Position numbers and translations under genes: made by a program
The notes under the pieces: model-generated
What the model saw: only the letters and a program-made list of their open reading frames with translations
Database searches by the model: none
Told to the model about the DNA's origin: nothing
NCBI GenBank assembly: GCA_026415435.1
Contig: JAOAHC010000045.1
Coordinates: forward strand, 61,090-93,089
From: Clostridia bacterium
Lineage (GTDB): Bacteria > Bacillota > Clostridia > TANB77 > CAG-465
Direction: 5' to 3'
Length of the DNA stretch: 32,000 nucleotides
Part shown: in pieces, positions 26,210-29,048 of the stretch
Layout of the letters: each line of letters opens with the position of its first letter
Position numbering within the stretch: the first letter of the stretch is position 1

Positions 26210-26238
26210 TTGAAATTGGAAGGGAAGTATAGTATAAT
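26210..26238 (+). promoter_or_regulatory. sigma-A-type promoter of the second T4CP operon
   Basis: TTGAAA-N17-TATAAT, 40 nt upstream of the ATG at 26279. Confidence 0.55.
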
Positions 26239-26278
26239 ATTATTAGATATTATGTTATCTTCTAGGAGGAGTTATGTG

Positions 26279-26812
26279 ATGGAACCATTAATACAAATGA
26301 ATAAATTTGAAATAATAGATATGCCTGGAATGAATACTCTTGCTTTTGTTGTAGAAGAAAATTTAGAAGAATATAAAAGAGGTAATGCATACTTATCACT
26401 TCAAAAAATAGAATGTGATGAAGTTGAAGAATCCGGAAAACTTAAAAAAGTTTTTAATGTAATAGCAACAGAGGAAGACAAACAATATATTGTTCTATTA
26501 ACTCTTACCAAATCTAAAGCAATACTAAGTACAGGAGAACTTACAAAAAATGGTTTTACAGCTGTTGAAAGAAATATTCCTTTAAGTTACGGAACGATAT
26601 ACAATCAAGAAGGAGTAGAATATAAAGAGATAAGCTATACACCAGATTTTAAAAGACACTTTTCAATAATTGATACACAAAGTGGCGAAGAAATAAAACC
26701 TAGATTATATGTAGATGATAAAACTAATGCTATAAAAGGAAGATGTAAAATCTTACCTAATAGACCATATATAGTACTTGAACTAAAATTAGAAGAGGAA
26801 AAAAGCTCTTAA
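26279..26812 (+). CDS. hypothetical soluble 177-aa protein, first gene of the T4CP operon
   Basis: ORF-track 26210..26812. The internal ATG at 26279 follows AGGAGGAG. No TM segment and no motif I recognise. Confidence 0.5.
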   Translation: MEPLIQMNKFEIIDMPGMNTLAFVVEENLEEYKRGNAYLSLQKIECDEVEESGKLKKVFNVIATEEDKQYIVLLTLTKSKAILSTGELTKNGFTAVERNIPLSYGTIYNQEGVEYKEISYTPDFKRHFSIIDTQSGEEIKPRLYVDDKTNAIKGRCKILPNRPYIVLELKLEEEKSS

Positions 26813-26854
26813 GTAGATGTAGTTTAGATGTAGAAAAATGAGGAGGAAATTATT

Positions 26855-27010
26855 ATGATATTAAAAGTGACGGCAGCGACTTTTTGTCCTTTAACTGAAA
26901 TTCCAGGAAAAGAAACAACAAAAAGCATAGGAGAAGGAATATTAAGCTATAAATATAAATCACCTGAGGAAAGAAATAAGAATAAAACTTCTAAAGTAGA
27001 AGAAAGATAA
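26855..27010 (+). CDS. hypothetical 51-aa protein
   Basis: Below the ORF-track cutoff. GAGGAGGAAA lies 4-5 nt upstream of the ATG. Translation is MILKVTAATFCPLTEIPGKETTKSIGEGILSYKYKSPEERNKNKTSKVEER*. It ends 29 nt before the T4CP start. Confidence 0.4.
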   Translation: MILKVTAATFCPLTEIPGKETTKSIGEGILSYKYKSPEERNKNKTSKVEER

Positions 27011-27039
27011 TTGTACATATAAAATTAAGAGGTAAACAT

Positions 27040-28998
27040 ATGAATATTGAGGAAATAAAAAGACATTCAATACCATTTTTAATAGTCTACGTATTATTTG
27101 ATATAGTAATAGTAGGCTCTTTTTTGGTTACAAATTACCACATACCAGCAGATGTTGATTTTATTGAAAGGACGAACCAATTTTATTCTAAATTTGTTTC
27201 GTATTTAATAAATCCATTTGCTGTTATAGGAGATATTTTTACTAAGTCAGGATTACTTTCAAAGTTTATGACGGCTTCATTTTACACGCTTATAGTATTT
27301 ATAATTTTATACATATATTGGCGAGTAAAAAATGCTAAAAAATATGAATATCAAGGACAAGAACATGGATCTAGTGACTGGAGCAAAAATGGCGAAGAAT
27401 TTAGAAAGTTACCAGATGGCAGTGAAATATTAAATAAAAAAGATGGTTTTATATTAAGCAAAAATCACTTTTTAGGGACGGATTTAAAAAAGGTTAAGGT
27501 AAATAAAAATATTCTTGTATTTGGTGGTTCCGGTACAGGTAAGTCAGCATGTTACGTTAAACCAAATATTTTACAACGACTAGGTTCTTATGTTATAACA
27601 GATCCAAAGGGAGAGCTATATAGAGAAACATCACAATTTTTAAAAGAAAGTGGCTGGAATGTTAAAGTATTAAATCTAGTTGATCCAGATTATAGCGATA
27701 GATATAATCCACTATCACATATAAGAGATCATGCAGATGTAGATATTATAGCTCATACTATAGTTATGAGTGGCGATGGTGAAGGTGGTGGCAAGTCTTC
27801 AGATCCATTTTGGGATAATACTGCAAAAATGTTACTTAAGGCATGTATTTACTATGTTATATCAGTACTACCTGATGAAGAACAAAATCTATCTAGCTGC
27901 TTAAATATAGTAAGAGCTGGTGGTTCAGACGAGACAGTTTTTGATAAACTTTTTGGTGAGTTAAAACCAGAACATCCAGGTAGAAAAGAATATGAAGGTA
28001 TAAGGGTTGGTGCAGATAAAACAAAGCAAAGTATTGCAATTTCACTTGTATCAAAATTAACTCATTTTGATACGCCTAATATGCAAAAATTAACTACCAG
28101 TAACAATATTGAATTTGAAGAACTTGGAAATAAAAAAACAGCTATTTATGTTATATCTCCGGATAGCCATAGTACATATAATTATATCTTAACTATATTT
28201 TATGGCCAATTACTTCAAAGATTATATGCACAAGCGGATAGAAACGGCGGTAGACTTAATCAGTCTGTATATTTGCTATTAGATGAGTTTGCAAATATAG
28301 GTAAAATACCAGATTTTAATCAAAAATTAAGTACAAGTAGAAGTAGAGGTCTTAGTATATCAATAATAGTTCAAAGTATAGATCAATTAGTTGACTTATA
28401 TAAAGATTTACATGAAAATATAATAGCAAACTGTGATACTCAGTTGTTCTTGGGGAGTAAATCTATTAAAACATGTGAGTATGTTTCAAAGAGTTTAGGG
28501 CAAAAAACTATAAAGTTCCAAAATAAGTCTGTTAGTAAAGACAAAAAGGAAATTCAAAAACAAGGTGTTTCATTTAGTGAGCAAAGACAAGGTAGAGACT
28601 TAATGACCGTTGATGAACTTATGCGTATGGGATATGATGATGAAATAATTTTGGTTAGAGGTCTTAAACCTATAAAAACTAAAAAAGCTTGGTACTTTAA
28701 GTATCATCCACAAAGAATTATTGCAAAAAGTTATGAGATACGCGATTTGTCTGAAATGCCAAAACCTGAAGAAATTGAAATCCATGTAATGGATGTGCTT
28801 GCGCATATAGAAGAACGTGAGAAACATGCAAAACAAAAATTAAAAGAAGAAAAAGAGCAAAATAGTAGTATACTATCTTCTAGTAGCGAAGAAGAAATTA
28901 TTGATTTAGTAAAAGAAGAGAATGGAGACTTTGATCTTCAAAAAGAATTAGAAAGAAAATTTGATGAATTATTTGGTTCGAATAATAATCATGATTAA
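27040..28998 (+). CDS. type IV coupling protein (VirD4/TraG family)
   Basis: RBS AAGAGG. Two N-terminal TM helices. Walker A is VFGGSGTGKSACYVKPN. T4CP motifs present: DPKGELY, RYNPLSHI, DPFWDNTAKMLL. Walker B is YLLLDEFANIG. Also ISIIVQSIDQL and TQLFLGS. Acidic C-terminal tail (SSSEEEIIDLVKEENGDFD). Confidence 0.85.
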   Translation: MNIEEIKRHSIPFLIVYVLFDIVIVGSFLVTNYHIPADVDFIERTNQFYSKFVSYLINPFAVIGDIFTKSGLLSKFMTASFYTLIVFIILYIYWRVKNAKKYEYQGQEHGSSDWSKNGEEFRKLPDGSEILNKKDGFILSKNHFLGTDLKKVKVNKNILVFGGSGTGKSACYVKPNILQRLGSYVITDPKGELYRETSQFLKESGWNVKVLNLVDPDYSDRYNPLSHIRDHADVDIIAHTIVMSGDGEGGGKSSDPFWDNTAKMLLKACIYYVISVLPDEEQNLSSCLNIVRAGGSDETVFDKLFGELKPEHPGRKEYEGIRVGADKTKQSIAISLVSKLTHFDTPNMQKLTTSNNIEFEELGNKKTAIYVISPDSHSTYNYILTIFYGQLLQRLYAQADRNGGRLNQSVYLLLDEFANIGKIPDFNQKLSTSRSRGLSISIIVQSIDQLVDLYKDLHENIIANCDTQLFLGSKSIKTCEYVSKSLGQKTIKFQNKSVSKDKKEIQKQGVSFSEQRQGRDLMTVDELMRMGYDDEIILVRGLKPIKTKKAWYFKYHPQRIIAKSYEIRDLSEMPKPEEIEIHVMDVLAHIEEREKHAKQKLKEEKEQNSSILSSSSEEEIIDLVKEENGDFDLQKELERKFDELFGSNNNHD

Positions 28999-29000
28999 AG

Positions 29001-29048
29001 AAATAGCTAAACTATATTTAATTACATATAGTTTAGCTATTTTAATTT
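29001..29048. terminator. bidirectional rho-independent terminator
   Basis: Perfect 17-bp stem AAATAGCTAAACTATAT-TTAATTAC-ATATAGTTTAGCTATTT followed by TAATTTT. Confidence 0.8.

Follow-up and report, generated by a model that had tools for sequence, protein, structure and literature searches.

The DNA analysed here, referred to as the window, is a 32,000-nucleotide stretch (positions 61,090 to 93,089 of the forward strand) of contig JAOAHC010000045.1 from the Clostridia bacterium assembly GCA_026415435.1 (TANB77, CAG-465 in the GTDB lineage), and represents a chromosome segment of a spore-forming Clostridia-type bacterium with a GC (guanine plus cytosine) content of ~27%. Its last part contains three consecutive genes, hereafter the trio, which code for a 177-aa protein (p177), a 51-aa protein (p51) and a type IV coupling protein (T4CP) of the VirD4/TraG type, with a promoter and a terminator of their own:

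26210..26238, + strand: sigma-A-type promoter, TTGAAA (26210-26215), 17-nt spacer and TATAAT (26233-26238), matching 11 of 12 consensus positions
26279..26812, + strand: p177, 177-aa gene, ATG at 26279, stop at 26812, ribosome-binding site AGGAGG at 26264-26269 (from the reading frame)
26855..27010, + strand: p51, 51-aa open reading frame (ORF), ATG at 26855, ribosome-binding site GAGGAGG at 26840-26846 (from the reading frame)
27040..28998, + strand: VirD4/TraG-type T4CP, 652 aa (from profile matches and motifs)
29001..29049, + strand: intrinsic terminator, perfect 17-bp stem (29001-29017 / 29026-29042), 8-nt loop and UAAUUUU tail (from folding)

The promoter, the three genes and the terminator were all found where an initial annotation of this DNA had placed them. 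The promoter is among the three best-scoring sites within the AT-rich interval 26000-30300, where promoter-like sites are frequent (42 found vs 30 expected), and both the TTGAAA-17-TATAAT sequence and the 5' untranslated region are kept upstream of the orthologue in the nearest relative (locus L152). A 200-aa ORF that had been listed over p177 starts at a TTG within the -35 box, which is not the true start. The terminator hairpin has a folding energy of -20.6 kcal/mol (z = -5.6, with none of 200 shuffles folding equally well) and was not picked up by a consensus terminator scan.

Judged by its sequence, the product of the third gene is a canonical and intact member of the VirD4/TraG family. 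It matches the Pfam family PF02534 (T4SS-DNA_transf) with an E-value of 7e-78 (262.9 bits, cut-off 20.1) and the NCBIfam model NF045973 ('VirD4-like, CD1115 family') with 418.5 bits (cut-off 250); TrwB_AAD_bind matches residues 149-530 at 1.8e-28, and TraG-D_C matches as well. All the landmarks that had been read from the sequence were located, namely the motifs GGSGTGKS (aa 162-169), DPKGE (188-192), YNPL (222-225), DPFWDNTA (255-262) and LLLDEFANIG (412-421), the acidic C-terminal region and the two transmembrane (TM) helices, which appear as N-terminal hydrophobic segments in Kyte-Doolittle windows above 1.6 beginning at aa 8-15 and 71-76. The earlier view that the Walker motifs carry no inactivating changes was borne out, as they are intact in the window and both Walker A and Walker B are invariant among the orthologues. 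Near the C-terminus, after a variable acidic linker, comes a clade-specific motif, DLQKELERKFDELFG (aa 632-646, window 28933-28977), which in the form DLQKELE[AK]KFDELFG is kept in 77 of 96 distinct T4CPs linked to p177 genes, from both of the clades described below; the C-terminus extracted from a single plasmid T4CP (L153) is different. The helix formed by this motif is a candidate partner-docking site. Members of the family normally go with a relaxase gene and with a mating-channel locus that includes VirB4, carried by a mobile element. This context is missing here: in the window, no integrase, relaxase or repeats flank the trio, and no VirB4 gene is found in the 32 kb.

A database search with p177 returned 389 relatives; the 120 that were listed share 67-84% identity with it, and the few of these that bear a name are 'Clostridia bacterium' metagenome-assembled genomes (MAGs). 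In a scan of one genome per GTDB species, the p177 family was found in 58 species, all of them uncultured gut Clostridia (from rabbit, ruminant, mouse and human) and including Clostridium sp. CAG:465 and CAG:1219, and p177 is followed by the T4CP in every locus of these species where the sequence continues. A metagenome scan gave 423 further relatives, from which 80 loci were fetched; many of these carry a human gut label, and some lie on contigs as long as 520 kb. The same p177-T4CP core is present wherever the contig is long enough. Co-occurrence, which the initial annotation had proposed as a check, is therefore seen for all three genes: p177, a small ORF (separate or fused) and the T4CP travel together in the recovered relatives.

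The surroundings of the module fall into three housekeeping contexts. Most loci of the 58 species have the gene order DnaD-DnaI, DnaJ (on the minus strand), gyrA, VanW, p177, small ORF, T4CP, p236 (a 236-aa gene), dnaX-ybaB-recR, while in a subgroup the trio lies between dnaB-tilS-ftsH...LytR and dUTPase-M48-LemA-yabE-ksgA, and in the third context murE-ddl-DnaJ precedes the module and SbcD follows it. No relaxase, VirB4, integrase or other transfer gene was found in the flanks of any relative (within 8-10 kb, >100 related loci). In the comparison of the window with L152, p177 has 84% identity and a ratio of nonsynonymous to synonymous substitution rates (dN/dS) of 0.045, and the T4CP has 80% identity and a dN/dS of 0.11, compared to 66% and 0.21 for dnaX and 64% and 0.25 for VanW. 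When the other species are compared with the window, p177 shows about 55-84% identity, the T4CP about 47-75% and dnaX 52-57%; only gyrA exceeds p177 in conservation.

Plasmids offer no comparable gene set. There was no match to p177 in 72,556 plasmids searched with tblastn, and among more than 5000 matches to plasmid T4CPs, identity to the T4CP of the window does not exceed 40%, compared with 47-80% for its orthologues; the matched plasmid T4CPs sit between a relaxase or PcfB/DUF3801 gene and genes for PrgI, VirB4 and a hydrolase. In a neighbour-joining tree, all T4CPs linked to p177 fall in one cluster, far from the plasmid outgroup, with two sub-clades that correspond to loci linked to SbcE/SbcF-like genes and loci linked to dnaX. 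The module is fixed in housekeeping regions of the chromosome in at least 58 species and two deep clades, and is vertically inherited.

In 32 distinct relatives from both clades (about one-third), the T4CP frame is broken one codon ahead of Walker A (for example, at L084 9200-9260, L001 11360-11400 and L007 11290-11330). The site always has the structure GTN GTN GGA C GGN TCN GGN NCN GGT AAA: in the 0 frame, GGA CGG is followed by a stop 5-6 codons on, and the +1 frame encodes the G-S-G-x-G-K of the P-loop. Nine of these loci leave no way of producing the P-loop half alone, as their +1 frame is closed by a stop two codons upstream and offers no start codon. No Arg codon is rarer in these genomes than CGG, which outside the site occurs ~0.1 times per 1000 codons, and both halves of the T4CP are kept across the interrupted loci. 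Because the GGA-C-GGN structure is identical throughout and both halves are conserved, the interruptions look like recoding rather than decay; on these sequence features, programmed +1 frameshifting at a hungry CGG codon is likely, and what looks like the outcome would be a TM-only product of ~165 aa in addition to the full-length T4CP. Such a candidate recoding site is of a type rarely seen in bacteria. The T4CP of the window is unbroken, and the equivalent site (27517-27546) is intact.

These data bear on the most conventional explanation, that the trio is a decaying remnant or the edge of an integrative and conjugative element (ICE) or integrated plasmid, with the T4CP becoming a pseudogene and its partners left over as accessories. 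The CD1115 family is typical of Gram-positive conjugative elements, a second remnant resembling a type IV secretion system (T4SS) lies 9 kb upstream (see below), and about a third of the relatives have an interrupted T4CP frame. Against this, the trio holds the same position in dozens of species and is intact through three chromosomal contexts, the dN/dS values of p177 and the T4CP are lower than that of dnaX, the catalytic motifs are intact, integrase, relaxase and repeats are missing from the flanks in the window, and the interruptions all share the GGA-C-GGN form, with both halves conserved, which resembles recoding. We consider a remnant extremely improbable. Neither the ICE edge nor the Walker damage that the initial annotation had named as grounds for abandoning its view turned up, given the synteny of the relatives, their conservation and the comparison with plasmids; the trio forms a unit in the recovered relatives, in three housekeeping contexts and without relaxase or VirB4 genes nearby.

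The two partners had been annotated as belonging to unknown families, and this stands: profile searches with both proteins and a structure search with p177 matched no family. For p177, there was no match in Pfam, NCBIfam, PHROGs or PADLOC, and a profile search of the PDB sequences gave only noise. Its AlphaFold2 (AF2) model (mean predicted local distance difference test score, pLDDT, 79; predicted template-modelling score, pTM, 0.76) has an all-beta architecture of 13 strands plus a single short helix, and Foldseek searches of the PDB and BFVD with this model gave no hit at E<=0.001; the best hits are Ig-like sandwiches with template-modelling scores of 0.2-0.3, which we leave uninterpreted. 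The protein is mildly acidic (isoelectric point 5.1) and has no signal peptide by eye. As modelled, p177 is a cytoplasmic all-beta protein of a new family without known relatives. The family is small, as a hidden Markov model search over 1.84 billion cluster representatives matched just 109 clusters. Its domain is also found within a few large cytoplasmic multidomain proteins, including P0468 (L156 3791-6685), which combines a Ser/Thr kinase, the p177 domain and Sel1 repeats, P0453 (L157 8001-11150), which combines the p177 domain and Sel1 repeats and lies ~4 kb from genes for a 453-aa T4CP-like protein and ClpP, and the further large proteins P0442 and P0447. A NurA-like nuclease was considered for p177 and rejected, as the fold class is wrong (all-beta vs RNase-H-fold).

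The counterparts of p51 are far less uniform. A small ORF of 43-123 aa (median 69) follows p177 in 117 of the 124 distinct loci, typically starting about 10-70 nt past the p177 stop (one overlaps the stop), and in 6 further loci it is fused in frame to p177 (L055, L056, L058, L059, P0361 and P0362); by the Rosetta-stone argument, the fusions indicate that the two act together. The small ORFs are hydrophilic and their sequence is barely kept (33% identity between the window and L152); p51 itself matched no family. An acidic-hydrophobic tail (such as EDEPII or GEDDMIV) ends 27 of the 117 small ORFs, and the p51 of the window has no such tail. A role of this tail as a mimic of the C-terminus of the single-stranded DNA-binding protein SSB was rejected on the same count, the motif being carried by only 27 of 117 and not by p51 of the window. 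p51 is probably a disordered tail or adaptor peptide; AF2 gives a disordered tail for a fused form (see below).

It had been suggested that the two partners could be the substrate or an adaptor of the T4CP. Strong purifying selection on p177, its cytoplasmic nature, the fusions to small ORFs and the occurrence of its domain inside kinase and Sel1 proteins favour a bound subunit or adaptor with a flexible tail; the adaptor half of the suggestion thus gains ground, and a secreted substrate fits less well. The latter idea amounts to protein secretion, with p177, or p177 together with p51, as a translocated effector carrying a C-terminal signal. An effector gene would be expected to adjoin its T4CP, and many small ORFs end in acidic-hydrophobic tails, which we take to resemble the C-terminal signals and docking tails of T4SS biology. 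However, p177 is among the most conserved proteins of the region, unlike effectors, its domain occurs inside cytoplasmic proteins, the tail is limited to the minority of small ORFs noted above and missing from the window, and no complete channel is evident, all of which makes secretion very unlikely.

A different kind of evidence comes from the sister clade, whose divergent p177 homologues (23-51% identity) likewise have a small ORF next to or fused to them, followed by the T4CP. In L061, L067/68 and L070/71, the operon continues with a Metallophos gene (SbcD/Mre11-like) and an AAA_23/AAA_27 gene (SbcC/Rad50-like), and the flanks consist of housekeeping genes. Most sister-clade metagenome loci with enough downstream sequence have the order p177, T4CP, SbcD-like, SbcC-like, and the pair, here termed SbcF/SbcE-like, is found next to the T4CP in, for example, L061, L067, L070, L075, L084-L091 and L102. 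Both proteins score below the curated cut-offs. The SbcC-like protein has 545-630 aa and shows no CxxC hook by eye. In the middle of the coiled coil of the L084 protein (11989-13824) there are two adjacent hydrophobic segments (~aa 300-345) in the form of a hairpin; given these segments, the SbcC-like protein of the sister clade may be membrane-inserted, beside the membrane-anchored T4CP. In B. subtilis, SbcE (YhaN), whose signature is a hydrophobic central region in place of the zinc hook, pairs with the Mre11-like SbcF (YhaO), which makes polar foci in competent cells, and the pair takes part in double-strand-break repair and transformation (PMC2811018).

A DnaJ gene is also linked to the module. 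The window copy is the following:

20132..21139, - strand: CbpA-type DnaJ (J domain and DnaJ_C, with no zinc-finger hit; from domain hits)

In 41 of 117 dereplicated loci, a CbpA-type DnaJ gene lies directly upstream of p177, at about -1 kb, on the same strand (counterparts include L084 6988-7899 and L061 8988-9899), which suggests an ancestral operon of the form DnaJ-p177-small ORF-T4CP-SbcF-SbcE. The linkage to SbcF/SbcE and DnaJ genes points to DNA handling rather than to generic secretion. In one relative (L001 336-1734), genes for bAvd and a reverse transcriptase lie a few kb upstream of the DnaJ-gyrA region, a pairing that we take to be typical of diversity-generating retroelements.

The nuclease link could also be read as defence against plasmids or phages, in which a membrane T4CP-like sensor or translocase hands incoming DNA to the Mre11/Rad50-like nuclease. 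The sister-clade operon with its SbcD-like and SbcC-like genes would fit, as would an 'anti-phage phosphoesterase' model that the SbcD-like protein weakly resembles, a weak hit of the PADLOC mad8 family over the P-loop and the island-like context of P0453 near a T4CP-like gene. Defence systems, however, are patchy, strain-variable and found in islands, whereas this module is present throughout its clade, keeps its synteny, lies among replication genes and is very strongly constrained; no significant PADLOC family was obtained for p177, p51 or p236, and the nuclease genes are absent from the window locus. Defence therefore appears decidedly unlikely.

T4CPs belong to the FtsK-HerA superfamily, and the protein is membrane-anchored; these properties, together with its standing as a core, highly conserved gene among dnaB/dnaI, gyrA and dnaX-recR, would suit a chromosome translocase of the FtsK/SpoIIIE kind that acts at the division or sporulation septum and replaces or supplements FtsK/SpoIIIE in Clostridia with small genomes. 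The host is a spore-former (gerA/B/C at 902-5012), and end processing by SbcEF-like proteins would fit DNA trapped at septa. VirD4-type T4CPs, on the other hand, have no known role in the segregation of double-stranded DNA and no FtsK gamma domain, and the promoter of the trio looks vegetative, which is neutral here. A septal translocase is unlikely in our estimate.

From its left end, the window contains gerA/B/C, sodA and tRNA genes, then genes for LemA, an M48 peptidase and a yabE-like G5/SLT protein and ksgA, followed by a T4SS-like module, the DnaB_2-domain, DnaI-like and DnaJ-like genes and gyrA, and finally VanW, the trio (p177, p51 and T4CP), the 236-aa gene, ffs and dnaX. Two of these features were annotated as follows:

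14676..18030, + strand: T4SS-like four-gene module coding for a 604-aa ATPase, a pilin, a polytopic protein and a PrgI-like protein (from profiles and gene order)
29402..30112, + strand: p236, 236 aa, one N-terminal TM segment, with its own TTGAAA-17-TATAAT promoter at 29341-29369, between the T4CP terminator and ffs

The T4SS-like module is located directly upstream, on the same strand, of the genes for a DnaB_2-domain (DnaD/DnaB-like) protein and a DnaI-like helicase loader. Thus, the earlier statement that nothing of the relaxase or mating-channel kind is adjacent to the trio holds for the immediate neighbours, but not at a distance of 9 kb. The membrane ATPase (604 aa when counted from a TTG, 523 aa in the database gene call, which begins internally) has hits to a TrwB-like P-loop and to TraG-D_C. 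When a VirB4-like identity was considered, PDB sequence and profile searches returned just DotL, the sole profile hit and a marginal one (E = 0.2); the ATPase is accordingly called T4CP-like with low certainty, from sequence comparison. The 118-aa ORF at 16471-16827 matches PF18895 (T4SS_pilin; 1.3e-6, 28.9 bits, cut-off 26.6) and is kept in relatives. The 280-aa polytopic protein (16831-17673) had only membrane-domain Pfam hits below threshold and weakly matched the plasmid gene in the corresponding position, and the 115-aa small membrane protein is PrgI-like by position. The order of the module is that of part of the Gram-positive conjugation loci on plasmids (T4CP, a gene of ~110-125 aa, a gene of ~265-280 aa, PrgI), and the pairwise phmmer matches are collinear but weak. 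Within the dnaX-linked clade, 7 relatives have sequence that extends to this region, and the module is kept in all of them. It lacks VirB4, a VirB8-like protein, a hydrolase and a relaxase.

With these genes in view, the T4CP might be a host protein that serves conjugation in trans, coupling integrative and mobilizable elements or T4CP-less ICEs to a channel encoded elsewhere, with p177 and p51 as relaxosome adaptors. The T4CP is canonical and has all its domains, p177 occupies the slot directly upstream of the T4CP that is held by PcfB/DUF3801 on plasmids, and pilin, VirB6-like and PrgI-like genes are nearby. Yet a service to mobile DNA would hardly lead one to expect fixation, synteny and a conservation above that of dnaX across a clade of order scale, no relaxase or VirB4 is found in the 32 kb or within the flanks of the relatives that were searched, p177 never occurs on the plasmids examined, and the sister-clade links are to nuclease, SMC-like and DnaJ genes rather than to transfer genes. 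We regard service in trans as about as improbable as defence.

The neighbours of the trio had been given as VanW on one side and the signal recognition particle RNA gene (ffs) and dnaX on the other; the gene order agrees, but the conserved p236 gene between the terminator and ffs had been overlooked. It is kept at the same position in 42 related loci, all of the dnaX-linked clade, and is missing from the other contexts. No family or credible PDB match was found for p236, and there was no consistent Pfam hit even with a 27-sequence profile; a VirB8-like identity was considered and could not be supported by profile searches. We treat p236 as a conserved downstream neighbour whose membership in the system is uncertain. 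Between gyrA and VanW, on the minus strand, there is another 177-aa ORF (23681-24214) with no family hit; homologues with 35-40% identity are found in a similar place in L019-L021, L036 and L062.

Our preferred explanation, to which we assign a probability of roughly 0.55, is that the trio is a domesticated, vertically inherited and relaxase-less T4CP module that is no longer mobile and handles DNA at the membrane. It is the permanence and high conservation of this chromosomal gene across the lineage that make repurposing for a host DNA function at the membrane probable. The T4CP would form the usual membrane-anchored hexameric translocase, and p177 with its disordered small peptide would serve it as a receptor, adaptor or regulatory subunit of its own, holding the place that relaxosome or adaptor proteins have in conjugation; p177 would possibly dock on the DLQKELExKFDELFG helix at the C-terminus of the T4CP. 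The substrate would most likely be DNA or DNA ends and not a secreted effector, in view of the sister-clade linkage to SbcF/SbcE and DnaJ genes. In the lineage of the window, the upstream module with its pilin, polytopic protein, PrgI-like protein and second ATPase might supply a membrane conduit, and the outcome would be a relaxase-less machine for DNA import, export or repair.

Several observations weigh against this explanation. The SbcF/SbcE genes are absent from the window, and the link to DNA is borrowed from the sister clade. In the AF2 model of the natural fusion P0361, the tail is predicted to be disordered (pLDDT <50) and yields no docking model. The T4SS-like module has no VirB4, the universal T4SS ATPase, its likeness to conjugation proteins is weak except for the Pfam hit of the pilin, and its co-occurrence with the trio rests on 7 loci from one clade. 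The search for relaxase and VirB4 genes covered the 32-kb window and 8-10 kb around the loci of the relatives; the neighbour-joining tree contains one plasmid outgroup sequence and has no support values; and all hosts are uncultured MAGs.

Taken one step further, these bacteria could have their own equivalent of the archaeal Ced/Ted systems, a conjugation apparatus captured by the chromosome of the whole lineage and used without a relaxase to carry chromosomal DNA across the membrane. The trio would be its VirD4-like arm, together with the upstream module and the sister-clade SbcF/SbcE genes, and the whole would serve the import or exchange of DNA for repair or recombination. By this analogy, p177 and its peptide would constitute a new class of substrate adaptors and a third of the species would be regulated by the CGG frameshift. 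We put this elaborate form forward tentatively and hold it to be rather unlikely as a whole.

In its broader outline, domestication for DNA handling would have several consequences. Coupling proteins are counted as markers of mobile elements by annotators and ICE finders, and here one is a core, constrained chromosomal gene. If the module acts on DNA, it would be a bacterial case of host-captured conjugation machinery for DNA transfer and, if true, a handle on DNA exchange or repair in abundant uncultured gut Clostridia. In addition, p177 represents a new protein domain, found again in kinase and Sel1 proteins.

The initial annotation held that an intact orphan T4CP with two dedicated partners is not a described arrangement, and we found no description of it in the literature on orphan or domesticated T4CPs, T4CPs with SbcCD or YhaN, T4SSs of TANB77 and the CD1115 family. 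Its closest known counterparts are the CD1115/PcfC-like T4CPs of Gram-positive conjugative elements, which have the same fold, the same order of domains, from two TM segments through a TrwB-like nucleotide-binding domain with its all-alpha domain to TraG-D_C, and an accessory gene directly upstream (PcfB/DUF3801 on the plasmids). Unlike these, the T4CP described here is chromosomal and syntenic, shares no more than 40% identity with the plasmid members, has no relaxase, VirB4, VirB8-like or hydrolase gene nearby, is preceded by the unrelated new family p177, and has a clade-specific C-terminal motif and the sister-clade linkage to SbcF/SbcE and DnaJ.

The sister-clade pair resembles B. subtilis SbcE/SbcF in combining an Mre11-like phosphoesterase with a short Rad50-like ATPase that has a hydrophobic centre; B. 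subtilis yhaONM, however, has no link to a T4CP, and the sister-clade proteins are much shorter (545-630 aa). In archaea, herA-nurA-mre11-rad50 operons encode a hexameric ATPase of the FtsK-HerA superfamily along with Mre11/Rad50 and a small partner (PMC9905601). The sister clade, and only that clade, likewise combines an ATPase of this superfamily with Mre11/Rad50 homologues and a small partner; the ATPase is a membrane-anchored VirD4 rather than HerA, and the all-beta p177 has no similarity to NurA.

The archaeal Ced/Ted systems consist of a VirB2-like pilin, a VirB6-like channel and a VirB4/HerA-like ATPase; DNA import cannot proceed without CedD, a VirD4-like ATPase with a locus of its own, and Ted loci are often linked to Rad50 and HerA (PMC9905601; bioRxiv 10.1101/2024.09.27.615169). 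The likeness to these systems is an analogy of parts, not homology in detail, and no sequence relationship is claimed: the host is a bacterium, the ATPase adjacent to the pilin gene appears T4CP-like and not VirB4-like, and p177 and p51 have no Ced counterpart. What the Clostridia share with Ced/Ted (CedA, CedA1/A2, CedB and CedD) are chromosomal, conjugation-derived parts without a relaxase, a VirD4-like ATPase encoded at a separate locus, a VirB2-like pilin accompanied by what may be equivalents of the polytopic membrane protein and of the FtsK-HerA-superfamily membrane ATPase, and, at some loci, a linkage to Rad50.

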